Below are positions 31,076 through 64,000 of a stretch of DNA of 64,000 nucleotides, piece by piece (the first letter of the stretch is position 1; every line of letters starts with the position of its first letter). A model generated the notes under the pieces. It was not told the DNA's origin and made no database searches. It worked only from the letters and a program-made list of their open reading frames with translations. Both the position numbers and the translations under genes were made by a program. This stretch comes from Promethearchaeota archaeon (lineage in GTDB: Archaea; Asgardarchaeota; Lokiarchaeia; Sigyniarchaeales; SOKP01): assembly GCA_048938005.1 (NCBI GenBank), contig JBHLMQ010000002.1:32001-96000 (forward strand), read 5' to 3'.

Positions 31076-32128
31076 ATGCTATCTGATGTAGGTTGGCTTA
31101 ATGTTATCTCAATAATGGGAATTCTTATTTTTGGTTGTTCAATTGGAATATTCTTTATGTACAAAGGGAGAAAAACAAAGGTTAAACTCCTCTTTTATAT
31201 GGGTTTGGCTATTTTTTTCAATGGATTATGGTATTGGGGAAATTTTTGGGAAAGCTTTTCAATTCTTATTACAGGGAATAACTTCGAAATAGGTGTCTCA
31301 TACGAATTGCAGGCTATAATGAGCTTTATGTGGGTTGGGCCATCAACATTTTTTGCATGGTATGTCGGTGCTACTCTAGTAATGCCGAAACAAAAATGGT
31401 ATTTTATTAGTTTTGGTCTAATTCTAGGGATTTTATATGAATTATTTCTTTTTATAGATCCACTAGGCTCTATTTATATTTACGTTCCAGTACCCGCAAA
31501 TTCAGATTTAGTTGATGAAAATCTTATTCCTAACACACCTTTATCTATTATAGTGACTCTATACATAACATTTGGTGTAACTTTTATAGGTTTAGGCTAT
31601 TTGTATAAAAGTATTCAATCGAAAGATGTCTTAAAAAAAAAATATCTTTATTTGTCAGCAGGTTATATTTTTGTAGTCTTATTCTCAACAATAGAAGGCT
31701 TCGGCGCTGTTGGGATTACTTTATTTTTTTCTAGGGTGGGTATTATTGTAAGTTTTGGGTTTAATTATTTTGGTTTAAGAGAAGAGCCTATTAAAATTGA
31801 AAAAATAACTACTAAAAAAGAATTTGAAGTTGAAGATTCAATATTTAGAATTGCAAAAAGACCTGCTCGAATAACCGAGGAGGAAGTAACTTATTACAGA
31901 GAGCAGAAAATATGTTTGATGTGTAAAGGAAAAGCAGGAGGATTCAATACTTATATTTGTACCGAGTGTGATGCTATATATCATGAAGATTGTGCACGTG
32001 CTTTATCTAACATGGAAAATGCTTGTTGGGCGTGTAATGAGCCAATTGATAAATCTAAACCCTCTAAACCGTTTAAAATTGAGGAGGCCGAAGAAGGTTT
32101 TAAAAAATCAGAAAAGTTTAAAGACTAA
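31076..32128 (+). CDS. 7-TM membrane protein with C-terminal C4HC3 RING-like finger (candidate E3)
   Basis: CLMC-x11-CTEC-x4-HEDC-x10-CWAC at 31913-32035; immediately upstream of the ubiquitin gene. Confidence 0.75.
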   Translation: MLSDVGWLNVISIMGILIFGCSIGIFFMYKGRKTKVKLLFYMGLAIFFNGLWYWGNFWESFSILITGNNFEIGVSYELQAIMSFMWVGPSTFFAWYVGATLVMPKQKWYFISFGLILGILYELFLFIDPLGSIYIYVPVPANSDLVDENLIPNTPLSIIVTLYITFGVTFIGLGYLYKSIQSKDVLKKKYLYLSAGYIFVVLFSTIEGFGAVGITLFFSRVGIIVSFGFNYFGLREEPIKIEKITTKKEFEVEDSIFRIAKRPARITEEEVTYYREQKICLMCKGKAGGFNTYICTECDAIYHEDCARALSNMENACWACNEPIDKSKPSKPFKIEEAEEGFKKSEKFKD

Positions 32129-39356: not shown

Positions 39357-42044
39357 TTAGAGCTTAATTTCGTTATCGCATGACCAACATTTATCACCTT
39401 TTTCTTTTAAGATGATAGCGCATTTCATGCAATAACGTGTATTACAGTGAGGGCATAAATATATAAAACCGTCGATTTCTCCTCTGTGCACTATACAAAC
39501 ATATTTTTCCTTTTCGACAGCAACTTCCCCTTCTGTTTTTCGCAATTCTTCCAATTCCTCACGGCTTAATACATGTTCAGAAGAAATTATAGGTTTAGGC
39601 TTTTTAAGCTTTTTTGTGGGTAAAAGTGATAATTTTGTTTCGCCTTCAGGAATAACTCTTTTTCTAGATATTTTACGATGTCTTATTATCATCCCTGTTC
39701 CAAATATTCCTGCAATAGCAATTGTAATTAATATAATTGTTATTAAAAGTGGAAATGGTTCATCAGGTTTATCTATCCATAAAAAAATTTCAATTTTATC
39801 AGTTCCTGTTACTATTATATCATTTTGCCCGTCATTGTTTACATCTCCAACCCAAATGGACCCCCCTCTCCAATCCGTTTCTATTATATCCACATCCCAA
39901 TTCCCGGAAATTTTATTCCAGCTTAACATTGAGATACATCCACGTTTTCTGAATACTAAATCGTTTTGTCCATCATTGTTTGCATCTTCTATAAAAAAAC
40001 TGCCCCCAGGGTCATCACTCCCAGATGGCCTTTGCCATTTTTGTGGAACCCAATTCCTAGAAGTAATATTCCAAAATAGGGTGTAAATAAACGGCCCAGT
40101 TGGATCACTAATTGAGGTAACAATATGATTTTGACCATCATTGTTAATATCTCCTATAAAAATATCTATAGGTATATCTGTAGGTGCCAAACCTAAATTT
40201 TTAGTAATTGTTGGATTCCAATCCTTAGAAGTTACGTTCCAGCAAAGTATTGAAATGCTTTGATCATTTTCATTTGCTGTTACGATCTCATTTTGCCCAT
40301 CATTGTTTGCATCTCCTATAAAAATGTCTGCCAAAGTTGGGGTGTATCCAACATTCTTAGTGATCGTTTTATCCCAATTATTGGAAGTAGTGTTCCAACA
40401 AAGTATAGAGACAATACTACTATTACCTCCAAGAGCTGAACTTACGATATCATTTTGCCCATCATTATTTGCATCCCCCACAAATACATCATATGCTCCG
40501 ACTTGTTTCTTGATTCTTTTATCCCAATCGTTGGAAGAAGTGTTCCAGCATAGTATTGAAATCACGCCTCCATTTGCTACTACAATATCATTTTGCCCAT
40601 CGTTGTTCGCATCTCCCACAAAAACCCTTTGAGGCCAAAGTTCTACCTTTTTTGTGATTTCGGTCCAATTATTAGTTGTGATATTCCAGCAAAATATTTC
40701 AATATAATCGATAGAGGACATAGATTCATAAGGCGCATGTATAATATCATTTTGTCCATCATTGTTAGCATCTCCAATGCAAATGCTACGAGCGTTAAGA
40801 CTATCTATCGTCTGTAGACGACCAAAATGACCAGAAATTTGTTTCCAGCAAATTATTGAGACAGAATTATCTTGAAAATTTGCAGTTACTATGTCATTTT
40901 CCCCGTCATTGTTTACATCTCCTATAAAAACACTTGCATCGCCATCTATCTGCTCCCCAAAATCTCCAACATCCTTAATTATTTCTGTATCCCAATCGTC
41001 AGTAACTACATTCCAGCACAGTATTGAGACTGTATCATCCAAGTAATTTGCAGTAACGATGTCATTTTCCCCATCAATATTTACATCGCCTATAAAAACA
41101 CTCAGGGGGCGCCTACCTACAGATAATTGAATTTCTGCATCCCAATCGTCAGAAATCACATTCCAGCACAGTATTGAGACAGTATTGCCATTACTATTTG
41201 AGGTTACGATGTCATTTTCCCCATCATTATTTGCATCTCCTATAAAAACGCATTTCGGAGCTGATCCGACACTTTTAGAAATTTCTGCATCCCAATCGTC
41301 AGTAGTTACATTCCAGCATAGTATTGAAACTTTATTGCCAAAACCACATGTTATTATGTCATTTTCCCCATCGTTATTTGCATCTCCTATAAAAACACAG
41401 GCTGGGCTATCTCCGACATCTTTAGTAATTTCTGCATCCCAATCGTCAGTATTTACGTTCCAGCATAGTATTGAGACATTATTATCATTATAATTTGCAG
41501 TAATAATATCATTTTCCCCGTCATTGTTTGCATCCGCTACAAAAACACAATCCGGCTCTGATCCGACATTTTTAGTGATTTCTACATCCCAATCTTTTAA
41601 AGTTATGTTCCAGCAAAGTATAGAAATCGTATCATTTAAAAAATTAGCAGTTACGATGTCATTTTGCCCGTCATTGTTAGCATCTCCTATAAAAACGCTA
41701 GTAGGTCGATTTCCAACATTTTTGGTAATTTCTGCATCCCAACCGTTTAAAATTACGTTCCAGCACAGTATTGAGACATTATTATCGTAATAATTTGCAG
41801 TTATAATGTCATTTTGCCCGTCATTGTTTGCATCTCCTATAAAGACACAGCTTGGGGCCCATCCGACATTTTTGGTAATTTCTGCACCCCAATTACCTGA
41901 CGATACTTTAGGTGAGGAGTTTATGGAAGTTGAATTATATGTAGATGGGCCTATCTGAGGTCTATTTTCAGTTAAATTCACGAAGTTAAACTTTAGGATA
42001 AATAAGAAAATCAATATAAACGAAAAGAAGTTCCTCTTCCTCAT
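39357..42044 (-). CDS. single-pass protein: signal peptide, 14 FG-GAP/VCBS repeats, TM, cytosolic RING-like finger (copy 1)
   Basis: 14 x D(A/V/I)N(N/I)DG(Q/E)N motifs; TM LLITIILITIAIAGIFGTGMII; CIVH-x10-CPHC-x4-CMKC-x10-CWSC. Start taken at MRKRNFF. Confidence 0.88.
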   Translation of the reverse strand: MRKRNFFSFILIFLFILKFNFVNLTENRPQIGPSTYNSTSINSSPKVSSGNWGAEITKNVGWAPSCVFIGDANNDGQNDIITANYYDNNVSILCWNVILNGWDAEITKNVGNRPTSVFIGDANNDGQNDIVTANFLNDTISILCWNITLKDWDVEITKNVGSEPDCVFVADANNDGENDIITANYNDNNVSILCWNVNTDDWDAEITKDVGDSPACVFIGDANNDGENDIITCGFGNKVSILCWNVTTDDWDAEISKSVGSAPKCVFIGDANNDGENDIVTSNSNGNTVSILCWNVISDDWDAEIQLSVGRRPLSVFIGDVNIDGENDIVTANYLDDTVSILCWNVVTDDWDTEIIKDVGDFGEQIDGDASVFIGDVNNDGENDIVTANFQDNSVSIICWKQISGHFGRLQTIDSLNARSICIGDANNDGQNDIIHAPYESMSSIDYIEIFCWNITTNNWTEITKKVELWPQRVFVGDANNDGQNDIVVANGGVISILCWNTSSNDWDKRIKKQVGAYDVFVGDANNDGQNDIVSSALGGNSSIVSILCWNTTSNNWDKTITKNVGYTPTLADIFIGDANNDGQNEIVTANENDQSISILCWNVTSKDWNPTITKNLGLAPTDIPIDIFIGDINNDGQNHIVTSISDPTGPFIYTLFWNITSRNWVPQKWQRPSGSDDPGGSFFIEDANNDGQNDLVFRKRGCISMLSWNKISGNWDVDIIETDWRGGSIWVGDVNNDGQNDIIVTGTDKIEIFLWIDKPDEPFPLLITIILITIAIAGIFGTGMIIRHRKISRKRVIPEGETKLSLLPTKKLKKPKPIISSEHVLSREELEELRKTEGEVAVEKEKYVCIVHRGEIDGFIYLCPHCNTRYCMKCAIILKEKGDKCWSCDNEIKL

Positions 42045-42327
42045 ATTTAATCGCCCTAACAAATATTCTTACTGTTTTTCAAATTCAATTTTTTTAAAAT
42101 AATTCTTCTTTTACTTCTATATTTCTCCTTTATGATCAATATATTTTTTGGATTGAAGCACTTGCTAAAGGACTAAATACTTTATTGATTAATCTCTATA
42201 AGATGTTATAAAATAAAATCATATTTAACAATATTGTACATAAAGAATATAAATATCGTAAAGAATGAAAATAAAAAAATTTAGATGAATAAAAAAAGTG
42301 ATAAAAAGCAATTATCGAAATTGATTC

Positions 42328-44997
42328 TTAGAGCTTAATTTCGTTATCACATACCCAACATTTATCACCTTTTTCTTTTAAGATGATAGCGCATTTCATG
42401 CAATAACGTGTATTACAGTGAGGGCATAAATATATAAAACCGTCAATTTCTCCCCTGTGTACTATACAGACATATTTTTCAGTTTCTACAGCAACTTCTC
42501 CTTCTATTTTTTCCAATTCTTCCAATTCCTCAGGGCTTAGTATGTGCTCAGAAGAAACTGTACTCAGAGGCTTTTTAAGCTTTTTTGTTGGTAAGAGTGG
42601 TAATTTTGTTTCGCCCTCAGGAATGGCTCTTTTTTTAGATATTTTGCGATGTCTTATTATCATACCTGTCCCAAATATTCCTGTAATGGCAATTGATATT
42701 AATATTATTGTCACTAAAAATGGAAATGATTCATCAGGATTATCTAACCATAAAAAGACTGAAATATATTCACCAGAAGATGATTCATGTGCTACTACTA
42801 TATCATTTTGCCCATCATTATTTACATCTCCCACAGAAACGTCAAAAGGACGAACCTCAACTGTTTTTCTTGTATCGATATTCCAGTCCTTGGAAATTAT
42901 ATTCCAGCTTAATATTGATATGGTAGGACCCATCCGATTTGCATTTACTACTTCATTTTGCCCATCATTATCTGTATCTCCAATAAAGACACACCTAGGG
43001 TTATCATTTTTTCTGAATTGCCATTTTTGTGTATACCAATTCCTAGAAGTAACATTCCAACATAGTATATAAATAGAACCAAATATATCATCACTTGAGA
43101 CAACAATATCATTTTGCCCATCATTGTTCGCATCTCCAATAAAAATATCAAAAGGTGCCACATTTAAATTTTTAGTAATTGGTGGATTCCAATCCTTAGA
43201 AGTCATATTCCAAACTAGTATTGAGATGCTTTTATTATCGTGATTTGCTGTTACGATCTCATTTTGCCCGTCATTATTAGCATCTCCTATAAAAAGAGTA
43301 TATGGGTTATCTCCAACATTCTTAGTGATTTTTTTATCCCAATTATTGGTAGTAGTGTTCCAACAAAGTATATCGACGGTGTTAGACGTTAAAGTTACAC
43401 CTACAATATCATTTTGCCCATCATTATTTGCATCCCCCACAAATACACTATATGCACTGATTTCTTTAGTGATTCTTTTATCCCAATCGATGGAAGAAAT
43501 GTTCCAACAAAGTATTGAAGTGAAGGCTCCATTTCCTGCTACAATATCATTTTGCCCATCATTGTTTGCATCTCCCACAAAAACGTCTGTAGGCATTGGT
43601 CCTACCCCTTTTGAGATTTGGGGATTCCAATTATCAGATGTAGCATTCCAGCAAAAGATTCCAATGTAATTAAGTACAGTAGTTATGCTGTAAGGTGAAA
43701 ATAAAATATCATTTTGTCCATCATTGTTAGCATCTCCAATGCAAATTCTATTCGAACCAATTCCATTTTCTATCATCTGCAGAGCCAAATGTCCAGAAAT
43801 TTGATTCCAACATAATATTGAAACAGAATTATCATCTTCATTTGATGTCACAATATCATTTTCCCCATCATTATTTGCATCTCCTATAAAAACACAGTTT
43901 GGGGCTGTTCCGACATTTTTAGTGATTTCTGCATCCCAGTTGTTAGCACTTACATTCCAACAGAGGAGTGAGAGTGTATCATCCCAATAATTTGCTGTCA
44001 AGATGTCATTTTCCCCATCATTATTTGCATCTCCTATAAAAACACTCATGGGATGTACACCTACGAATATTGGAATTTCTGCATCCCAATCGTCAGAACT
44101 TATATTCCAACACAGTATTGAGATAGTATTGCCGTCCCTATTTGAGGTTACGATATCATTTTCGCCATCGTTATTTGCATCTCCTATAAAAACGCAACTC
44201 GGAACTGATCCGACACTTTTAGTGATTTCTGTATCCCAATTGTCAGTAATTACATTCCAACATAATATTGAGACTTTATTGCTAAAACTATTTGTTATAA
44301 TATCGTTTTCCCCATCATTATTAGCATCTCCTATAAAAACACAGCTTGGGGCTGCTCCGACATTTTTGGTAATTTCTGCATTCCAATAGGAAGGAGGATC
44401 AGAAGTTACATTCCCACAGAGGAGTGAGATTGTATTATCCAAGTAATTTGCAATTACGATGTCATTTTGCCCGTCGTTGTTAGCATCTCCTATAAAAACG
44501 CTAGTAGGTTGATTTCCCACGTTTTTAGTAATTTCAGCATCCCAATCGTTGGAAGAAGTGTTCCAACAAAATACTGAAATGGTATCATCTAAAGAATTGG
44601 TAGTTATGATGTCATTTTGCCCGTCATTGTTAGCATCTCCTATAAAAACGCTAGTAGGTTGATTTCCAACGTTTTTAGTGATTTCTGCATCCCAAACCTT
44701 TAAAAATACATTCCAGTAAAGTATTGAGACAGTATTATCTACATAATTTGCAGTTACGATGTCATTTTGCCCGTCATTGTTAGCATCTCCTATAAAAACG
44801 CTAGTAGGTTGAATTCCAACGTTTTTAGTGATTTCTGCATCCCAAACTCCTGACGATGCTTTAGGCGAGGAGTTTATAGAAGTAGAGCTATATGTAGATG
44901 TGCCTATTTGAGGTCCATAATTAGTTAAATTCACGAAATTAAAATTTATTATAAATAAGAAAATCAATATAAATGAAAAAAAATTTTTTTTCCACAT
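42328..44997 (-). CDS. single-pass protein: signal peptide, 14 FG-GAP/VCBS repeats, TM, cytosolic RING-like finger (copy 2)
   Basis: Same architecture; near-identical tail CIVH...CPHC...CMKC...CWVC. Confidence 0.88.
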   Translation of the reverse strand: MWKKNFFSFILIFLFIINFNFVNLTNYGPQIGTSTYSSTSINSSPKASSGVWDAEITKNVGIQPTSVFIGDANNDGQNDIVTANYVDNTVSILYWNVFLKVWDAEITKNVGNQPTSVFIGDANNDGQNDIITTNSLDDTISVFCWNTSSNDWDAEITKNVGNQPTSVFIGDANNDGQNDIVIANYLDNTISLLCGNVTSDPPSYWNAEITKNVGAAPSCVFIGDANNDGENDIITNSFSNKVSILCWNVITDNWDTEITKSVGSVPSCVFIGDANNDGENDIVTSNRDGNTISILCWNISSDDWDAEIPIFVGVHPMSVFIGDANNDGENDILTANYWDDTLSLLCWNVSANNWDAEITKNVGTAPNCVFIGDANNDGENDIVTSNEDDNSVSILCWNQISGHLALQMIENGIGSNRICIGDANNDGQNDILFSPYSITTVLNYIGIFCWNATSDNWNPQISKGVGPMPTDVFVGDANNDGQNDIVAGNGAFTSILCWNISSIDWDKRITKEISAYSVFVGDANNDGQNDIVGVTLTSNTVDILCWNTTTNNWDKKITKNVGDNPYTLFIGDANNDGQNEIVTANHDNKSISILVWNMTSKDWNPPITKNLNVAPFDIFIGDANNDGQNDIVVSSDDIFGSIYILCWNVTSRNWYTQKWQFRKNDNPRCVFIGDTDNDGQNEVVNANRMGPTISILSWNIISKDWNIDTRKTVEVRPFDVSVGDVNNDGQNDIVVAHESSSGEYISVFLWLDNPDESFPFLVTIILISIAITGIFGTGMIIRHRKISKKRAIPEGETKLPLLPTKKLKKPLSTVSSEHILSPEELEELEKIEGEVAVETEKYVCIVHRGEIDGFIYLCPHCNTRYCMKCAIILKEKGDKCWVCDNEIKL

Positions 44998-51699: not shown

Positions 51700-52890
51700 T
51701 TAAATAATATCTAATTTTTTCCCAACTTTTTCTATAGCGCTTAATGCCATGTTTAAATCTTCTTTAGTGAGTAATGCATTCATCTGTACCCTTATTCGGG
51801 ATAATTCTCTTGCCACCATAGGAAACACTATGGGAGTCCCATAAATATTTTCCTCCTCAAAAAGTATTCGTGCTAATTCTTGGGCTTTTCCAGGATCACC
51901 GATGATTAATGGAATAATAGGAGTTGCCGAATTACCAGTATTATATCCCATACTTTGAACCTCTTTTTTAAAATAATTTGTATGTTCCCATACTCTTTTA
52001 ACATGTTCGGGCTCACTTTCAACAACTTCAATTGATGCTTTATTAGCGGCAACAACACCTGGGGGATGTGCTGTGCTTAAAAGATAAGTTCTGCTCTTAT
52101 TGGCACAAAATTCAATCAAATCTTTAGAGCCAGCAACAGTACCGCCGAAAACCCCAAATCCTTTACTCATGGACCCGCCCTCAACATGAACTTTACCTTG
52201 TAGATTGAAGTGAGCTACAATTCCTCGTCCATTTCCTAGGACACCCTCCCCATGACAATCATCTACGAAGATCATGGCACCAAAATCTTCTGCTATATTA
52301 GCAATATCCGCTAGAGGGGCCATATCTCCATCCATGCTAAAAACTCCATCAGTTATAATGCAAATTCTTCTTGCTTCTTCTTTTTCAGCTTCTTTAAGTT
52401 GAGATTCCAAATCTGATACATCTCTATGTTTATAAATAATTCGCTTAGCACCAGATAATCTAACACCATCAATAATAGATCCATGATTTAATTCATCTGA
52501 AACAACGATATCAGGTTTTCCAACTAGCATTGGAATTAATCCCGAATTTACAGCAAATCCAGTTTGACACAGAATTGAAGCTTCTACTTCTTTAAATTTA
52601 GCAAATTTTTCTTCAAATTGTTTTGTTAGATCAAACGAGCCAGCTATAACTGGTACAGCACCAGCACCAGCGCCATATTTTTTAGTGGCATCTATAGACG
52701 CTTGAACTACTTTTGGATGCGTAGCTAAACCAAGATAATTATTGGTATTAAGCATTAAAACTTCTTTTCCATCAACTACAGAATGCGGTTTGGAACCTTG
52801 CTCAAGATATCTTATAATCCATTCAAGGTTGTTTTTTCTTAATTGGGTCATTTCTTCCTTTAGAAAAGCAACAGGATCTCTTTTCATCAT
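51700..52890 (-). CDS. kbl: glycine C-acetyltransferase (2-amino-3-ketobutyrate CoA ligase), alpha-oxoamine synthase family
   Basis: NNYLGL, SDELNHGSIIDG, DGVFSMDGD, DDCH, SMSKG (PLP Lys), RIRVQ; divergent from tdh. Confidence 0.85.
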   Translation of the reverse strand: MMKRDPVAFLKEEMTQLRKNNLEWIIRYLEQGSKPHSVVDGKEVLMLNTNNYLGLATHPKVVQASIDATKKYGAGAGAVPVIAGSFDLTKQFEEKFAKFKEVEASILCQTGFAVNSGLIPMLVGKPDIVVSDELNHGSIIDGVRLSGAKRIIYKHRDVSDLESQLKEAEKEEARRICIITDGVFSMDGDMAPLADIANIAEDFGAMIFVDDCHGEGVLGNGRGIVAHFNLQGKVHVEGGSMSKGFGVFGGTVAGSKDLIEFCANKSRTYLLSTAHPPGVVAANKASIEVVESEPEHVKRVWEHTNYFKKEVQSMGYNTGNSATPIIPLIIGDPGKAQELARILFEEENIYGTPIVFPMVARELSRIRVQMNALLTKEDLNMALSAIEKVGKKLDII

Positions 52891-53070: not shown

Positions 53071-54018
53071 ATGAGAAGAATTCTTGTAATAGGCGCCGCG
53101 GGGCAAATTGGTAGTGAATTGGTACCATTCCTGAGGGAAAAATATGGTAATGATAATGTTATTGCTACTGGTAGAAAAACCCCCCTACCAGAAATTATAA
53201 AAAACACAGGGCCAGTAATTTACCTTGACGCATTAGAAAAAAATACCATTTCAAGAGTTTTTTATGAGTATGAGATAGATACAGTTTACCATATGGCTTC
53301 AATTCTTTCTGCCACTGGAGAAAAAATGCCTCAAACAGCTTGGGATATCAATATGAATGGTTTGATTAATATTTTAGAAGCTAGTAGAAAATATAATATT
53401 AAAAATATTATATGGCCAAGCTCTATAGCTGCATTTGGTCCTACTACACCTAGAGATAATACACCTAACATTACAATATTACAACCAACTACCATGTATG
53501 GTATAACTAAAGTAGCAGGAGAACTCTTAACTGAATACTATTACAAAAAATATAAACTAGATATTCGTTCAATGAGACTCCCAGGGATTATAAGCAGTGA
53601 AACTCTTCCAGGAGGTGGAACTACTGATTACGCTGTTGAAATATTCTATGAAGCAATCAAGAAAAAACAATATACTTGTTTTCTCAGGGAAGACACTGTG
53701 TTGCCAATGATGTATATGCCTGATTGTCTTAAATGCATGATCGATATTTTGGAGGCAGATAATTCAAAATTAAAGCGACGAGTATATAATGTTACCGGAA
53801 TGAGTTTTTCAGCAGGAGAAATAGCAGCTGAGATAAAGAAACAAATCCCAGAATTTCAAATAGATTATAAACCTGATTTTCGACAAGAAATTGCAGATTC
53901 CTGGCCAAAATCGATAGATGACTCTTTAGCGCGAGAAGAATGGAACTGGAATCCTTCCTATGATCTAGCTTCTATGACAAAAGATATGATAGAAATCTTA
54001 AGCAAACGACTTAAATAA
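53071..54018 (+). CDS. tdh: L-threonine 3-dehydrogenase (SDR/epimerase type)
   Basis: GAAGQIG, ILSATGE, PSSIAAFG, PTTMYGITK, PGGGTTDYA, PMMYMPD, RQEIADSWP. Confidence 0.88.
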   Translation: MRRILVIGAAGQIGSELVPFLREKYGNDNVIATGRKTPLPEIIKNTGPVIYLDALEKNTISRVFYEYEIDTVYHMASILSATGEKMPQTAWDINMNGLINILEASRKYNIKNIIWPSSIAAFGPTTPRDNTPNITILQPTTMYGITKVAGELLTEYYYKKYKLDIRSMRLPGIISSETLPGGGTTDYAVEIFYEAIKKKQYTCFLREDTVLPMMYMPDCLKCMIDILEADNSKLKRRVYNVTGMSFSAGEIAAEIKKQIPEFQIDYKPDFRQEIADSWPKSIDDSLAREEWNWNPSYDLASMTKDMIEILSKRLK

Positions 54019-57382: not shown

Positions 57383-57501
57383 GTAATCACACCTATACCT
57401 TTATTATTCTAATATAATGATTTGAATATTAAATATTTTAAAAATTAATTTATTTTGAAAAATAATTAAGCATTATATAACTAAAATACATTAGGGAGTT
57501 C

Positions 57502-58047
57502 TTATTTCTTTATTTTTTCTTTCCATTCCTCTGCTAAGAGACCCATTATTATTGCATCATGGTAACTTCCATTTGCCCAAATAAATTGTCGCTTTCTTCC
57601 TTCTTCTACGAATCCAACTTTTATGTAAGAATTTAAAGCCCTTATATTGAAATCATAAGTATATAATTCGATTCTGTTTAAATTAAGGGTAGTAAATCCA
57701 TATTCTATCAATAATTCCAATGCTTCAGTGCCATATCCTTTATCTTGATACTCTTTTTCCCCAATTACGATCCCTACTTCTCCTACTCGATTTTTCCACT
57801 CTATATTATGTATTCCACAATTTCCGATAATTTTATCTTTACCATTTTCATCTGGAATCATAATGGCAAAATTGATGGTATTTTCTCTGTTCTTAAGATT
57901 CTCAATCCAGTCTTCCTCCATCATTCTCGTCATTGGACGATACATTATCAGATATTGAGTAATTTCTGGATCATTGAACCATTTGAGATAGGAATCTATA
58001 TATTCTCTTTTAATAGGCCCTAATTTAACTCTATTCCCTCTTAACAT
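57502..58047 (-). CDS. GNAT N-acetyltransferase, RimJ/RimL-like
   Basis: IGNCG, EVGIVIG, YQDKGYGTE, N.RA..SY.KVGFVEEG. Confidence 0.9.
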   Translation of the reverse strand: MLRGNRVKLGPIKREYIDSYLKWFNDPEITQYLIMYRPMTRMMEEDWIENLKNRENTINFAIMIPDENGKDKIIGNCGIHNIEWKNRVGEVGIVIGEKEYQDKGYGTEALELLIEYGFTTLNLNRIELYTYDFNIRALNSYIKVGFVEEGRKRQFIWANGSYHDAIIMGLLAEEWKEKIKK

Positions 58048-58126
58048 AGAAGAAAAAAATCAAGATCAAAATAAAAAATTAATTATTTAAGTAGATTTCA
58101 AAAAAATTGGTAGATAAAGTTGAATC

Positions 58127-60991
58127 TTAAAATGATATACCCTTATTTCGCGCTATGTATTTAACTATCTCGAAGGATACAATACATATTAATGAGATTA
58201 GAAAGCAGACTAACCAATCGAGACCAGTTAAAAACATAAACATGAAATTAATACCTGAATCCGCCAAAAAAACTTGAACTCCAGGGATATACATCAGCAT
58301 TAAGTAAACAAGAAAAAGAAATCCTATAATTAGATAATTTCTTCGTTTACTGTCTTCTATAAAGCTTTTTATTAAAGACTTATTGGGACGTCTAATCTGA
58401 AAAACTAAAAAAGATTCACAGAAAAAGAGGGTTGTCATTAACATTGTAAGAGTTTTTCCCACTTTCAAATTAACACCATCTGAATACAGGTATAAATCAT
58501 TGAGTGCACCAAAATTCCAATTTTCAAAACTAACACCATAAATTCCACTATAAGTTATATAATAAACTAGAAGCATACTTACAGCCAGTAATATTCCATA
58601 TATGAATAAGAGACCAACAGTATTTTTTGAAAGGATTTCTTCCGAATCACGTGGTTTTTCTTTCATTACATCTTTAGACGTAGTGTCAAATGTGAGTATT
58701 AATCCCGGAAAGACATGTAAAGTTATCGCTAAAAATATCCATTGATAATAGAAAGGCTCATCTAAAAAGTATGGCAAATTAAGTACTATAGCTAAGATGA
58801 ATTGAACTATTCCTTCAAAAACATTTATACAAATATAAAAAAATACTACTGCTCGAATTCTTGCGAAAATTCCTCTTCCATGATTGATGCCTGTAACAAT
58901 CGAGTTGAAAGAATCATCTGAAATAACCATATCAGAAGCTTCTTTAGCTACATCTGTTCCGGTAATACCCATTGCGATTCCTACATCAGCCATGTTAAGT
59001 GCTAAAGCATCATTTACGCCATCTCCAGTCATCGCAACGACCTTATTCTCCTCCTGATATTTTTCTACAATATCCTCTTTATGTTCCGGAGAAACTCTGG
59101 CGAAAACTTTTACTGGTTTGAATTCTTCATATGATTTAATATCTTTAACCATCTTTCCCTCTACAGCTATTTCATTTTCATCAGTTACAATGGCAATTTG
59201 CGATGCTATGGCCCTTGCTGTAGTAGGGGAATCCCCTGTAATCATGACAACACCCACACCCGCTTCATGACACTGCCTTACTGATTCTCTTACCCCTTCT
59301 CTTGGAGGGTCCAATATTGTTACAAAACCAATAAAAATCAAATCCGATTCACTTACTTTTCTTCCTTCATCTCCTTCAGGTGGAATTGTATCCATTACTT
59401 TATAACATAAACTTAAAATCCTATAACCCTGATTAGCATATAAATTTACAATTTCCATTACCTTTCTCTTGATATCTTCAGTAAAATTAATTTCAATATC
59501 ATTATATAAAGCCTTGGCACAAAGTGGGATTAGAATTTCACTTGCTCCTTTTGAAAAAGAATAATAGGAGTGATTCCGTTTATAAAGTTTAGTCATCCTT
59601 TTCAATGTGGAATCAAAAGGATATTCTGTTATAGACTCAAAATCATCAAGAAGATAATCTCCCATCCCTTTTTGAAATAAAACCATAAGTGCTCCTTCTG
59701 TGGGAGAACCAACTACGTCCCACTTAGGAATTGTTCTACCAGAAACCGTGATTTCATTTTTTATTAATGCTGAATTGTTATTTAAGAATCCTGAAGTTAA
59801 TAATAATTTAAGAGAAGGATATTCCTCAATGTGTTTCACATAAACTGGATTTTTTGGATCATCCATTAAAATAATCTCTCCCTCTGGAGAATAACCACTA
59901 CCAGTAATTCTAAATATTGAACCATTCGTCCAAGCATGTTGAATAGACATCTGATTTTTTGTTAAAGTTCCTGTCTTATCTGAACAAACTACACTTACTC
60001 TTCCCAAACTATCTACAGATGCTAGATTTCTTATAATGACTCCTACTCGAGCCATAGCTAAGACTCCGGTGATTAGAACAATAGTCACAAGAAGTGGGAT
60101 ATTGATTGGCATAAGATCAAGGGCAGAATTCAGGCTTTCAACAAATTCAAGTCGTGTAAAACTACTTGCTACCCAAATTATTAAAAGTATTATCAACCAA
60201 AAAGTTACAATAATTAATCCTAGCCATTTACCAAAATTATTCATTTTTTGTCTTATAGGAATTTCACTTGTACCTGCCTCTTCTAAACCATGAGAAATCT
60301 TTCCTATCTCTGTATCTCCACCAACTTTCACTACTATAGATTTTCCATTTCCAGTTGTAATATAGGTCCCATAGAATACCATATTACTACGTTCACCAAT
60401 AGCAATATCTCTTTTGTTTATCGCTTTTCCTCTTTCTCCTTTTCTTACAGGTTCAGATTCTCCTGTCAATGATGCTTCATTTACTTCGAGGTTATGTGAT
60501 TCAATTATTCTAGCATCCGCAGGAATTTTGTCTCCTTGGTTCAATGCTAACAAGTCACCAATAACAATTTCTCTAGTTGGAATCTCCTGTTTTTGTCCAT
60601 CCCTGATTATTGTTGAAGTTGGAGCAGTTAATTCTCTTAGTGCTTTTAATTTCTTTGTAGCTCTATATTGTTGAATAATAGCAACCATACAGTTAAGAAA
60701 TACTATGAACAGAGTTAAACCAATGAAAGTCAAATTTCCCTCTGCTCCAAAAAGCACAGCTAAGAATAATATTATTGATGAAACTAAGTAAATCACGATT
60801 AACCAGTTAAATAGAGGAGCTAAATATATTTTAATAAACCCTTTTGAAACTTTAGGGATTTCATTGAATCCATATTTTTCTAAACGTTTTTTAACTTCCC
60901 TTTCGGACAATCCTTTATTAGGATCAGTTTTAAGTTCACGATAAATTTGCCCTAATTCAAGATTATAATAACTTACTTCTGCAGATTCCAT
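58127..60991 (-). CDS. P-type ATPase, P2A-like scaffold with atypical transport site (copy 1)
   Basis: LTGES, DKTGT, KGASE, DPPR, MITGD, FARVSP, TGDGVND; M4 PINIP. Confidence 0.92.
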   Translation of the reverse strand: MESAEVSYYNLELGQIYRELKTDPNKGLSEREVKKRLEKYGFNEIPKVSKGFIKIYLAPLFNWLIVIYLVSSIILFLAVLFGAEGNLTFIGLTLFIVFLNCMVAIIQQYRATKKLKALRELTAPTSTIIRDGQKQEIPTREIVIGDLLALNQGDKIPADARIIESHNLEVNEASLTGESEPVRKGERGKAINKRDIAIGERSNMVFYGTYITTGNGKSIVVKVGGDTEIGKISHGLEEAGTSEIPIRQKMNNFGKWLGLIIVTFWLIILLIIWVASSFTRLEFVESLNSALDLMPINIPLLVTIVLITGVLAMARVGVIIRNLASVDSLGRVSVVCSDKTGTLTKNQMSIQHAWTNGSIFRITGSGYSPEGEIILMDDPKNPVYVKHIEEYPSLKLLLTSGFLNNNSALIKNEITVSGRTIPKWDVVGSPTEGALMVLFQKGMGDYLLDDFESITEYPFDSTLKRMTKLYKRNHSYYSFSKGASEILIPLCAKALYNDIEINFTEDIKRKVMEIVNLYANQGYRILSLCYKVMDTIPPEGDEGRKVSESDLIFIGFVTILDPPREGVRESVRQCHEAGVGVVMITGDSPTTARAIASQIAIVTDENEIAVEGKMVKDIKSYEEFKPVKVFARVSPEHKEDIVEKYQEENKVVAMTGDGVNDALALNMADVGIAMGITGTDVAKEASDMVISDDSFNSIVTGINHGRGIFARIRAVVFFYICINVFEGIVQFILAIVLNLPYFLDEPFYYQWIFLAITLHVFPGLILTFDTTSKDVMKEKPRDSEEILSKNTVGLLFIYGILLAVSMLLVYYITYSGIYGVSFENWNFGALNDLYLYSDGVNLKVGKTLTMLMTTLFFCESFLVFQIRRPNKSLIKSFIEDSKRRNYLIIGFLFLVYLMLMYIPGVQVFLADSGINFMFMFLTGLDWLVCFLISLICIVSFEIVKYIARNKGISF

Positions 60992-61116
60992 AGTGAGTCT
61001 TCCACAGTTTTTAATATAATTTAAAGATAATTGAATTCAAAATTCTAATCAATATAATAAATAACCAATAATAATCATGCTTTAAAAAATTAAATATTTC
61101 TTATCAAGAAGTATTT

Positions 61117-63987
61117 TTAAAAATAAATATTTCTCCTTCTAACAATGTATTTAAATATCTCAATACCGATTATACCAGGTAAAGCAAGTAAAATACAAAT
61201 TAACCAATCGTCAAAACTTAAGAATAAAAAATTTAAATTAAGACCAAGCAAGTTATTTATAAAACTATTTACTGAAGATGAGAAGCACACTAATAAGACA
61301 TGAATTGCCAATGCAAATAAACAAATGAAAAGAAGTGGTTTATACAATTCTTCAGTTATACTCTTATACGCTGATTTATTTGGCCGTCTAAACGTCCAAA
61401 CAAAAAATGCTTCGAAAACATATATTGTTGTAATAAACATTGTCCTTGCTTTCATCTGTGTTAATTCTAATGGAGTAGATCCTATTGGGATATAACTTAA
61501 AGATGGATTTGTATTCCAAGGATTTAAAGGTATAATGCCTCCTAAAGTCAGTTGCAAAGCTAAAAATAGACCTAGTCCTCCTAATAAAGCTTGTATTAAA
61601 AGTAAAATCCAGAGTTTTTTACTTAATAATTCTTCTTCATTCCTTGGAGGTTCTTTCATAACATCTTTAGGATGTATATCAATAACGAGCGCCAATGAAG
61701 GGAGAGAATGCATAATTCCAAAAATATATATGTGTTGCCAATTCGAAGCAAATAGCTCAAATCCAATAAAGGGTTCGATAAGTTCAAAGGTAAAAAATGT
61801 TACTCCCTCCATAATATTAATACATATAAAGAAAAAAATAATAGTCCTTATTTTAGCAAAAATTCCTCTCCCAATTTTAACCCCTTGCTTAATGGATGAA
61901 AAATTATCATCAGTTATTACCATATCTGAAGTTTCTTTAGCGAGGTCGGTTCCAGTAATTCCCATTGCTACTCCTGCATTAGCCAGTTTTAAAGCAGGTG
62001 CATCATTGATACCATCTCCTGTCATAGCGCAAATTAGATCCTGCTTTTGATAATTTTCTACAATAATTTCTTTATCAGTTGGTTCTACACGCGCAAAAAC
62101 AGTTGTTTTGTTAAACTCAGCTAAAGGTAATTCTTTTATTTGATTGCCCGCAGCAACGAGATCTCCCTCTCTGTAAATCTCCATTTCAGAAGCAATAGTT
62201 TTTGCCGTTGCTGGATGGTCTCCAGTTACCATTACAACTTTAACTCCCCCACTCTGGCATTCTTTAACAGATTCTTTAACTCCTTGTCGGGGTGGATCCA
62301 TTATTGAAACAAAACCTAAGAAAATTAACTCTTTTTCCACTTCTTCTCTTTTTAAATCATCAACTTTTTGTATATTTTTATAAGCAACTGCTAATGTTCT
62401 AAATCCTTGATTAGCACGCTCAATTATTTTGTTTAAAATTAGATTTTTAGATTTTTCATCAAGATCTTTTAAAATTCCATCGATTTCAATTTGAGATGAT
62501 ATTTCCAACATTCGTTCAGGAGCACCCTTTGAAAAAGCAATAACTGTTGGATTATTTTCAGCTGTAGTGCAAATAGTAGTCATTCTTTTAACTTCTGAAC
62601 TAAATGAAAACTCGGTTTTTTTATCATATCTATTCTTGATGTCATATGGGAATATTCCCGCTTTTTCTGCTAAAACCAGTAATGCTGCTTCTGTGGGAGA
62701 TCCATAAGCTCTCCTTACTGCTTTCTCTCTCATACCCTTTAATTTTACTTTAATATCTTCGAATTCAAGTCTTGCAGTATTATTAACAACAATTGAATCA
62801 ATAAATTTATTAAAAGTTTTATCAGCTTTTAAATCAATAGGTGTACTATTTTTTAAAATCAATCCCTCTGCATCATATCCAGCCCCGGTAACATTATATT
62901 CTTGTTCGTTTAGCCAAAATTTTTCAACAGTCATTTCATTTTTTGTAATTGTTCCAGTTTTGTCTGAAGCAATTACAGACACACGCCCAAGCGATTCAAT
63001 AGCAGATAAATTCTTTATGATCACTCCACTCTGAGCCATATTTAATACACCTGTAATAAGAACTAATGTAGAGAGTAATGGTAAATTAATAGGAACAACA
63101 TTCATTGCCCTTATTATAGAATCAGTAAAAGCATTTACAATTTCATCTTGAATAAGATTATTTTGAATAGCTAAAATGGTGAGTTTGAAGGATATTAAAA
63201 TAATTAGATTGATTATTACAATAATTCCAAGGATTTTTCCGAGTCTATTCAACTTTCTGGTTAGGGGAATATCTTCTATACTACCCATTTCATTTAAAGT
63301 CTGGGAAATTTTTCCAATTTCTGTTTTAGTCCCTGTACCTGTTATTAATTCTTTTGCATTTCCAGTATAAACGTAAGTTCCCATAAATACCATATTGGAT
63401 TGATTTTGAATAGGTAATTGTTTTTTCTCTAAAGTATCACTATATTTTTCTACCGGCTCACTTTCACCTGTTAAAGGCGCTTCATCAACACTTAAATTCA
63501 TAGATTCTATAATACGGCCATCAGCAGGAATTTTATCCCCTTGCGTGAGTATAACTATATCTCCGGGAATTAAATCTCTCGTATTTACCTCAATATGTTT
63601 ACCATCTCTTAGGACAGTTGCTTTAAGTGCAGAAATTTCTCTTAGGGATTCTAATGCTTTTTGTGCTCGAAATTGCTGGATTATAGCGGTGATCGAATTA
63701 ATTATAACTACTGTAAAAGTTATTATCTGTGTGTCACCCCTACCTAATATTACGATAATGATTCCAGTTATAAGGAGAATCATTATTAAGAAATTGAAAA
63801 GAGGTGCAAGGTAAATTTTCCATATACTTTTCTTAATCTTAGGTAATTCATTGTAACCATATTTTAGATATCTTTCACTCAATACAGAAGATTTTAATCC
63901 CTGATCTGGATCAGTATTAAATCTCTCTAATAATTCATTAATAGGTAGATTATAATAAAATTCATCAGATCCAAGTTTGATTGACAT
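61117..63987 (-). CDS. P-type ATPase, P2A-like scaffold with atypical transport site (copy 2)
   Basis: LTGES, DKTGT, KGAPE, DPPR, MVTGD, TGDGINDAPAL; M4 PINLP. Confidence 0.92.
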   Translation of the reverse strand: MSIKLGSDEFYYNLPINELLERFNTDPDQGLKSSVLSERYLKYGYNELPKIKKSIWKIYLAPLFNFLIMILLITGIIIVILGRGDTQIITFTVVIINSITAIIQQFRAQKALESLREISALKATVLRDGKHIEVNTRDLIPGDIVILTQGDKIPADGRIIESMNLSVDEAPLTGESEPVEKYSDTLEKKQLPIQNQSNMVFMGTYVYTGNAKELITGTGTKTEIGKISQTLNEMGSIEDIPLTRKLNRLGKILGIIVIINLIILISFKLTILAIQNNLIQDEIVNAFTDSIIRAMNVVPINLPLLSTLVLITGVLNMAQSGVIIKNLSAIESLGRVSVIASDKTGTITKNEMTVEKFWLNEQEYNVTGAGYDAEGLILKNSTPIDLKADKTFNKFIDSIVVNNTARLEFEDIKVKLKGMREKAVRRAYGSPTEAALLVLAEKAGIFPYDIKNRYDKKTEFSFSSEVKRMTTICTTAENNPTVIAFSKGAPERMLEISSQIEIDGILKDLDEKSKNLILNKIIERANQGFRTLAVAYKNIQKVDDLKREEVEKELIFLGFVSIMDPPRQGVKESVKECQSGGVKVVMVTGDHPATAKTIASEMEIYREGDLVAAGNQIKELPLAEFNKTTVFARVEPTDKEIIVENYQKQDLICAMTGDGINDAPALKLANAGVAMGITGTDLAKETSDMVITDDNFSSIKQGVKIGRGIFAKIRTIIFFFICINIMEGVTFFTFELIEPFIGFELFASNWQHIYIFGIMHSLPSLALVIDIHPKDVMKEPPRNEEELLSKKLWILLLIQALLGGLGLFLALQLTLGGIIPLNPWNTNPSLSYIPIGSTPLELTQMKARTMFITTIYVFEAFFVWTFRRPNKSAYKSITEELYKPLLFICLFALAIHVLLVCFSSSVNSFINNLLGLNLNFLFLSFDDWLICILLALPGIIGIEIFKYIVRRRNIYF

Positions 63988-64000
63988 ATTTGAAATAATT

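Follow-up and report, generated by a model that had tools for sequence, protein, structure and literature searches.

The 64,000-nucleotide window analysed here (positions 32,001 to 96,000 of the forward strand of contig JBHLMQ010000002.1, assembly GCA_048938005.1, from a Promethearchaeota archaeon) contains two adjacent P-type ATPase genes. As judged from sequence, they belong to a distinct and apparently undescribed archaeal clade that is centred on the Asgard archaea and branches within the prokaryotic P2A (Ca2+-pump-like) radiation. Open reading frame (ORF) calls place gene 1 (protein P0001) at 58127..60991 and gene 2 (P0002) at 61117..63987, both on the minus strand, and their products of 954 and 956 amino acids share 42% identity across the entire length. 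According to the alignments, the side-chain ligands of Ca2+ site II (E309, N796, and D800 in SERCA) are replaced throughout the clade; three site-I ligands, the M5 Asn, the M5 Glu, and the M8 Glu, are kept, and an Asn beside the M4 proline and a His in M6 are newly fixed. The clade members are probably cation pumps with a specificity other than Ca2+, a judgement that concerns this general statement and not the choice of a particular metal.

Both genes are predicted to encode complete, catalytically competent P2-type ATPases with ten helices. Each protein contains the five Pfam domains Cation_ATPase_N, E1-E2_ATPase, Cation_ATPase, Hydrolase, and Cation_ATPase_C, the first of which begins at residue 8 in gene 1, without extra N-terminal helices. 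The catalytic motifs TGES, DKTGT, KGA.E, DPPR, TGD, and GDGxND are all present in both, including the A-domain TGES (60455..60466 in gene 1 and 63460..63471 in gene 2), the phosphorylation motif DKTGT (59966..59980 and 62950..62964), and the P-domain motif, which reads GDGVND in gene 1 (59009..59026) and GDGIND in gene 2 (62002..62019; all on the minus strand). The DKTGT Asp, TGE, GDGxND, and the nucleotide-binding motifs assign both proteins to the P-type superfamily, and the corresponding model TIGR01494 was passed with 302 and 280 bits (cut-off 62.3). The combination of Cation_ATPase_N with Cation_ATPase_C (M7-M10), ten helices, and no heavy-metal-binding domain is that of the P2 architecture. 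An AlphaFold2 model of gene 1, calculated from the clade alignment, reached a predicted local distance difference test score (pLDDT) of 82.8 and a predicted TM-score (pTM) of 0.75, and its 50 best PDB matches in Foldseek were all P2 pumps (SERCA, SPCA1, H/K, Na/K, and LMCA1 chains; E about 1e-56, TM 0.7-0.76).

The two proteins depart from P2A pumps at the ion site. M4 reads PINIP in gene 1 (60095..60109, minus strand) and, as located by motif search, PINLP in gene 2 (63079..63093, minus strand); M6 reads QWIFLAITLHVFP (58706..58744, minus strand) and QHIYIFGIMHSLP (61699..61737, minus strand), respectively. In P0001, Ile296 and Asn297 of M4 occupy what we take to be the positions of SERCA E309 and G310, and Ala755, Leu758, and His759 of M6 those of N796, T799, and D800; gene 2 has Phe, Met, and His at the latter three. 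The P2A ligand pattern of an M4 Glu and an M6 Asn...Thr-Asp is thus replaced by Ile, Ala/Phe, Leu/Met, and His. The M5 segments CINVFEG of gene 1 (58811..58831; Asn723 and Glu726) and CINIMEG of gene 2 (61804..61824) retain the presumed equivalents of N768 and E771, and the M8 segments FCESF (58409..58423; Glu859) and VFEAF (61405..61419) retain a Glu at the presumed position of E908 (all on the minus strand). In a HMMER alignment to the Listeria Ca2+-ATPase 6zhf, PINIP is matched to PEALS of that pump, and His759 to the Asp in its M6 segment ..LVNDSLP. A preliminary description of this locus had reported both ORFs, intact catalytic motifs, and the two M4 motifs, all of which were confirmed, the M4 motifs at exactly the same coordinates; its reading of M6, with Asp changed to His, and of the kept M5 NxxE and M8 Glu was borne out by the motif search and the 6zhf alignment.

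The same pattern was found when 31 clade sequences were compared column by column with 96 canonical ones, using P0001 numbering and SERCA equivalents that we assume from textbook knowledge. Position 296 (E309) is Glu in 96/96 canonical sequences and hydrophobic in the clade (I22, V3, F3, W2, L1), and position 297 (G310), Gly in 86 canonical rows, is Asn in 28 clade rows, Ser in two, and Met in one. In M6, position 755 (N796) is Asn in 91 canonical sequences and mostly Tyr, Phe, or aliphatic in the clade (Y10, F8, V3, I3, A2, and others), position 758 (T799) changes from Thr in 86 to a variable residue, and position 759 (D800) from Asp in 90 to His in 30, with a single Gln. The M5 positions are retained, with Asn at 723 (N768) in 89 canonical and 27 clade rows and Glu at 726 (E771) in 92 and 31, respectively, and position 859 (E908), which is Gln in 59 and Glu in 33 canonical rows, is Glu in 29 of the clade. 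Two further columns outside these helices differ: M2 has, at its cytoplasmic end, an acidic residue (Glu in 91 canonical rows) that is Gln in 26 clade rows, and the M1 Gln (88 canonical rows) is Pro in 27. Within the clade alignment, P295 and E726 are invariant, N297, H759, and E859 are conserved in at least 90% of the rows, and the second M4 proline is kept in 26 of the 31. The rebuilt cation site postulated in the preliminary description is therefore supported by this comparison, with the site-II ligands gone, three site-I ligands kept, and His and Asn newly fixed. One clade representative, P0136, combines the M4 motif PIMIP with an M6 His-Asp (..SVHDIP) and is the sole row with Met for Asn at position 297. 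Isolated single-site exchanges of the M4 Glu for Asn, Gln, or Ser (PNALP, PQALP, PSGLP) were also seen in otherwise canonical P2A-like pumps outside the clade, namely in a Nanoarchaeota metagenome-assembled genome (MAG; L040), a Halanaerobium MAG (L049), and P0173; among these three M6 was read for P0173, which retains an N..TD-type segment.

The motif combination delimits a coherent group. P[IL]N[IL]P together with the M6 His occurs in 121/121 sequences, a set made up of P0001, P0002, and the nearest 119 clusters at 90%, whose identity to P0001 is 71-91%. In a scan of 1.84 billion cluster representatives, of which the best 150 rows were considered, the 28 best full-length rows (at least 535 bits) all have a hydrophobic residue followed by Asn, Ser, or Met after the M4 proline, and a His in M6 wherever this helix was readable. 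Below 535 bits, rows with PEGLP and N..TD prevail, with one more full-length clade row at 483 bits and fragments bearing the clade motif interspersed. A precomputed PF01884 (PcrB family) label on the 960-aa homologue P0105, which would have offered a link to lipids, was rejected, as the protein has no room for an additional domain; the label stands alongside the ATPase domains of P0105 and probably is a spurious overlap.

A tree was calculated from 74 rows, consisting of the 31 motif-bearing sequences, 41 canonical representatives, the genome's own PEGL pump, and its own P3A-like pump as outgroup; HMM scores with controls stand in for P4, P5, P2B-D, P3B, and P6 references. All 31 motif-bearing rows formed one clade with a Shimodaira-Hasegawa-like approximate likelihood ratio test (SH-aLRT) value of 100, which arises among 42 canonical prokaryotic P2A-like (PEGL) rows. 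P0001 and P0002, which show all clade features (hydrophobic-Asn after the M4 proline, M6 His, M5 Glu, and M8 Glu), both lie inside it, P0001 in a subclade of 17 rows and P0002 in one of four together with P0133, P0135, and P0138. Since the two fall into different subclades, their duplication is old; gene 1 appears to derive from the widespread subclade and gene 2 to be a paralogue from a different, older one. The fixation of the exchanges across 31 divergent representatives argues that they were selected and did not arise by decay, as had been proposed for the Glu-to-Ile and Asp-to-His changes.

To what extent the clade is shared among the Asgard archaea was assessed by searching 201 genomes of the window's phylum with a clade profile, the Asgard identity of genomes being that of the submitters' labels. 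Clade-level matches were those with E = 0 and about 1180 bits or more, compared with about 905 bits for the best PE-type pump seen; of 17 lower-scoring matches used for calibration, one could not be read, one proved to be a clade member truncated by the end of its contig, and the other 15 were of the PE-type. By hand count, at least 131 of the 201 sampled genomes, distributed over 12 of 27 family codes, have an E = 0 match. The clade motifs were present in 30/30 best loci from other genomes of the phylum. Families with small genomes mostly are without a clade member. Many genomes carry two or more copies, and two clade genes lie within about 1.1 kb of each other in at least 26 genomes, 25 of them in the window's family code and one in another. 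A search with this profile, at a threshold of 1e-285, detected no clade member among 151 genomes of one further archaeal phylum and 121 of another. Nine of 30 clade clusters checked carried organism labels from their submitters, namely Promethearchaeota (5), Helarchaeota (2), Odinarchaeota (1), and Korarchaeota (1); one partial close match is labelled just "bacterium", and the other labels are all archaeal. A pattern scan of genome contigs for generic DKTGT and GDGxND regions yielded at least 80 loci; among the 80 listed, 77 have PE.. in M4 and three have other residues, and none is a clade member, so that the scan is uninformative on the distribution of the clade. The complete genome G038 of the same phylum (family code f19) is without the clade and encodes four other P2-like variants (loci L138, L141, and L143), which include PEGLQ with the M6 segment QILAIDLGIDIIP and PEELP with an ELFMD-type M6.

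The genome from which the window derives (3.72 Mb, 101 contigs) encodes six P-type ATPases including gene 1 and gene 2. The other four are two CPC-type P1B pumps, one P3A-like pump (PVALP in M4, LNDIP in M6), and one canonical P2A pump (PEGL, NIATDGIP), and with these, export of Ca2+, H+, and Cu-class metals already has candidates. The loss of all three side-chain ligands of Ca2+ site II makes ordinary Ca2+ pumping by the clade unlikely; together with the canonical PEGL/N..TD pump elsewhere in the genome, it renders plausible the earlier statement that these are probably not Ca2+ pumps. An ion site is suggested by the Glu residues buried in M5 and M8, which are invariant, together with the M6 His. 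Asn297 (M4), Asn723 and Glu726 (M5), His759 (M6), and Glu859 (M8) would, by homology, line one rebuilt pocket at the location of SERCA site I and part of site II. The former site II would be occupied by the bulky hydrophobic side chains of positions 296 and 755. With DKTGT, TGES, and GDGxND intact, the pump would run a normal E1/E2 phospho-cycle and move a small cation other than Ca2+, which could amount to export of a metal from the cytoplasm with H+ counter-transport. As to the substrate, a divalent transition metal may be placed first and H+ second. Borderline metals are commonly coordinated by imidazole and amides, which bind Ca2+, Na+, and K+ poorly, and the two carboxylates would balance one M2+; a metal of the Mn2+/Fe2+/Zn2+ class (also Co2+ or Ni2+) is therefore put forward tentatively, as a possibility short of a probable assignment. 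Gene 1 and gene 2, as old paralogues lying side by side in one genome family, may differ in substrate or regulation.

Several points weigh against this reading as a whole. The choice of substrate is based on general coordination chemistry and charge counting, and the clustering of the five residues is taken from homology to SERCA and not from distances in the model. A role of the M6 His as proton relay or as built-in counter-charge is just as conceivable. Two P1B metal pumps are already present in the genome, none of 10 neighbourhoods contained a metal-, lipid-, or ion-related partner, and the Fe/Mn exporter family VIT1 occurs in 174 of the 201 genomes, both with and without the clade and with no complementary pattern. 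The underlying tree was a quick LG+G4 calculation with a short search and SH-aLRT values only, no bootstrap, and no eukaryotic P4/P5/P2B-D references.

Family models offered a further way to place the clade. Hidden Markov model (HMM) scores were compared with those of four PE-type control pumps, half of them from Bacillales and half from the phylum of the window. P2A models were the best family models for both proteins, though far below their cut-offs, with 480 and 472 bits for gene 1 and gene 2 against the PMR1-type model TIGR01522 (cut-off 798.3) and 424 and 448 bits against the SERCA-type model TIGR01116 (cut-off 703.4). The controls, in contrast, passed the SERCA-type cut-off in 4/4 cases (711-743 bits), and the two archaeal ones also passed that of the PMR1-type (817 and 827 bits). 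The clade is no nearer to P4 or P5 than any Ca2+ pump is, and is more diverged from everything.

A proton or monovalent-cation (Na+/K+) pump, in which M5 Glu, M6 His, and M8 Glu form a protonatable relay or a monovalent site and the hydrophobic residue at the E309 position acts as in P3A H+-ATPases, is unlikely, though a proton relay ranks as the main alternative. A hydrophobic residue at the E309 position is also found in the genome's P3A-like pump (PVALP), the neutralised M2 acidic residue (Glu in 91/96 canonical rows, Gln in 26/31 clade rows) fits a less charged substrate, and His and Glu are classic proton carriers. The P3A model TIGR01647, however, scored the two proteins at 356 and 341 bits (cut-off 615.5), below ordinary P2A controls (452-490 bits), and the M6 Asp that binds the proton in P3A pumps is the very position that has turned into His. 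Furthermore, the genome already has a P3A-like gene with the M6 Asp, and His is an unusual ligand for Na+ and K+.

Quite unlikely is that the proteins still pump Ca2+ (or Mg2+), using the retained site-I residues and backbone carbonyls, even though source databases annotate them as "Ca2+-transporting ATPase". The nearest models and solved structures are indeed those of Ca2+ pumps, three of the five SERCA site-I ligand positions are conserved, and CtpE of the P6 family is reported as a Ca2+ transporter despite Ile for the M6 Asp in a 2023 review (PMC10654040). Against this stands the loss of the equivalents of E309, N796, and D800, which are kept in 96, 91, and 90 of the 96 canonical rows. The site destroyed here is site II, the one that single-site Ca2+ pumps use; scores against every Ca2+-pump equivalog model remained far below the cut-off, and the genome has a canonical Ca2+ pump besides.

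Two further readings assume a non-metal or large substrate. In the first, which we regard as very unlikely, the clade would be an independent prokaryotic departure from cation pumping, with a non-metal substrate carried inward during dephosphorylation. Lacking the M4 Glu, by which binding of a cytoplasmic ion is coupled to phosphorylation, such a pump could autophosphorylate as P4 and P5 ATPases do; the two Glu, the His, and the many aromatic residues of M6 would then hold a lipid head group, a polyamine, or some different organic cation. If true, the clade would match, on the archaeal side, the "large substrate" pumps otherwise confined to eukaryotes, and it would have arisen in the lineage closest to eukaryotes.

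The second reading, a lipid flippase or large-substrate transporter that is either a P2-to-P4 intermediate or a convergent case, had been raised as a possibility in the preliminary description in view of its "flippase-like" PIN(I/L) motif and is highly improbable. Under this reading, the M4 Ile would serve as hydrophobic gate, with phosphorylation that does not require a cytoplasmic ion. P4 ATPases are characterised by DGET in the A domain and PISL in M4, and the Ile at the E309 position does correspond to that of PISL; the carboxylate of E309, through which ion binding is linked to phosphorylation, is missing as well, and the polar residue that follows parallels the P5A motif PP[D/E]LP, as given in the sections of PMC10654040 on that family. 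A hydrophobic E309 position is not specific to P4, however, as the PVALP of the genome's own P3A-like pump attests, and from PISL the proteins have only the Ile in common. On the P4 model TIGR01652 (cut-off 431.25) they reach 108 and 106 bits, within the range of the controls (102-120), and on the P5 model TIGR01657 (cut-off 618.25) 241 and 236 bits, below that of the controls (255-274). The P5 motif PP.LP is likewise absent from M4, where a single leading proline is found. Instead of DGET both proteins have TGES, as do 119/119 close homologues; among the 31 diverse rows TGES occurs in 25, TGE with another residue in four, and NGES in one, with no motif found in the scanned span of the last, and DGET was absent from all 31 of these and from the 119 close members scanned. 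The 50 best structural matches from Foldseek include no P4 or P5 chain, the tree places the clade among PEGL pumps, and the Glu residues buried in M5 and M8 are invariant. A Cdc50-type two-helix partner was not found in 10 neighbourhoods by ORF sizes, clustering, and Pfam searches of nine neighbouring ORFs, a survey that did not extend to the whole genome, and such a partner need not adjoin the gene. The clade has no bearing on the origin of eukaryotic flippases.

A non-transporting relic or regulatory ATPase with a broken ion site, to which the loss of three canonical ligands might point, is hardly credible given full-length open frames in at least 131 genomes, close homologues that are 71-91% identical, catalytic motifs that are all intact, and replacement residues that are themselves conserved (N297 in 28/31, H759 in 30/31), which decay would not yield. 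A cation pump of altered specificity is the reading that we prefer.

The tandem arrangement of the two genes is real and not an assembly artefact, because the junction between them is bridged by contigs from four runs of two other studies (X2, 58212-61606; X5, 60788-63072; X6, 60756-62120; X7, 60890-61284). The spacer (60992..61116, 125 bp, read on the minus strand) is AT-rich; a run of T follows the upstream stop codon, and a TATA-like sequence precedes the ATG of the downstream gene, from which we read that gene 1 and gene 2 may be transcribed separately. No Rfam family was found in the spacer, and a search of 57400-64000 against Rfam gave a single chance-level match and no riboswitch. Scans for sigma-70 promoters and terminators remained at the level of shuffled sequence, and their models are not applicable to archaea.

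Genes in the neighbourhoods encode GNAT, DUF362, luciferase-like, deacetylase, epimerase, aminotransferase, and TFIIB-like proteins. Synteny is mostly conserved on the genus level, with a GNAT gene downstream and a TFIIB-like gene upstream. Just upstream of gene 2 and beyond the window, contig C9 carries a 316-aa ORF (L117:214-1161, minus strand) without a Pfam match, whose N-terminus has a zinc-ribbon-like start of the Cys-x-x-Cys type; a genuine TFIIB-repeat gene follows further up at L117:1904-2854, and the presence of both beside the ATPase pair is conserved in two genomes of the same genus code. Within the window, genes for a class I/II aminotransferase (51700-52890, minus strand) and an NAD-dependent epimerase/dehydratase (53071-54018, plus strand) are located near the pair, and both also occur within about 5 kb of a clade ATPase in one genome of the same genus and two f13 genomes (L119, L123, L125). 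This proximity could be ancestral synteny or chance, and no functional link is evident. Elsewhere in the window, two large ORFs of 901 and 889 aa at 39357-44997 (minus strand) have its highest G+C content (0.32-0.37 vs about 0.28 elsewhere).

The specificity of P-type ATPases is read from a handful of intramembrane residues, and members of the clade are annotated by their sources as "Ca2+-transporting" or "cation-translocating" ATPases. Where conclusions on how Asgard archaea handle Ca2+ are based on such annotation, they may include a pump that does not transport Ca2+, an example being the remark in PMC7997004 that the P-type pumps of Asgard archaea comprise a putative Ca2+-ATPase in all five proteomes and copper pumps. 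The passages of PMC7016017 considered here trace SERCA to bacteria and discuss no Asgard pump. According to PMC10654040, P4 and P5 ATPases are unique to eukaryotes, P6 (CtpE) is defined by an altered M6, and prokaryotes can be expected to have further families that await description. Our literature search, which did not reach subscription papers and TCDB, turned up no account of the clade or of its motifs, and the proviso attached to the preliminary description, that the motif might belong to an already characterised cation-pump clade, found no counterpart there. Relative to the literature searched, the residue combination of the clade is new, and the clade, a candidate for one of the prokaryotic families anticipated in PMC10654040, is a well-delimited and widespread variant of P2 pumps.

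Compared with known systems, the clade shares single traits with several families outside P2A. P3A H+-ATPases, whose motifs are known from the plant and fungal enzymes, have the same hydrophobic E309 position (PVALP in the genome's own pump) and like the clade occur in archaea, but keep the M6 Asp as proton site (LNDIP in the P3A-like gene) where the clade has His. P4 flippases share the Ile after the M4 proline and the lack of an acidic residue there, whereas the clade has TGES, mostly a second M4 proline, and the buried Glu of M5 and M8. P5A ATPases, with the M4 motif PP[D/E]LPxE in the sections of PMC10654040 that cover them, likewise have a polar residue two places past the first M4 proline when the motifs are aligned on ..LP; the clade differs in a P5 score under that of ordinary P2A pumps and in being without extra N-terminal helices. 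The P6 family, exemplified by CtpE of Mycobacterium, is, as described in the same review, likewise an offshoot found in prokaryotes in which the M6 Asp position is changed and which motifs do not place in any of P1-P5; it exemplifies a new family recognised on such grounds. CtpE, which is set apart here by this description and not by comparison with a CtpE sequence, however keeps PEGL, has Ile and not His in M6, and belongs to bacterial phyla, whereas the clade has no M4 Glu, an M6 His, and labels that are archaeal bar the one "bacterium". The closest likeness is to P2A pumps themselves: the best solved relatives are LMCA1 (6zhf; 414 bits), SPCA1 (398), and SERCA1a (346), and the five Pfam domains, the catalytic motifs, the M5 Asn and Glu, and the M8 Glu are common to both. 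The clade is distinguished from them by the change of PEGLP to P-hydrophobic-N-hydrophobic-P, of the M6 Asn and Asp to a hydrophobic residue and His, of the M2 Glu to Gln, and of the M1 Gln to Pro, and by equivalog scores that reach about 60% of the cut-offs.

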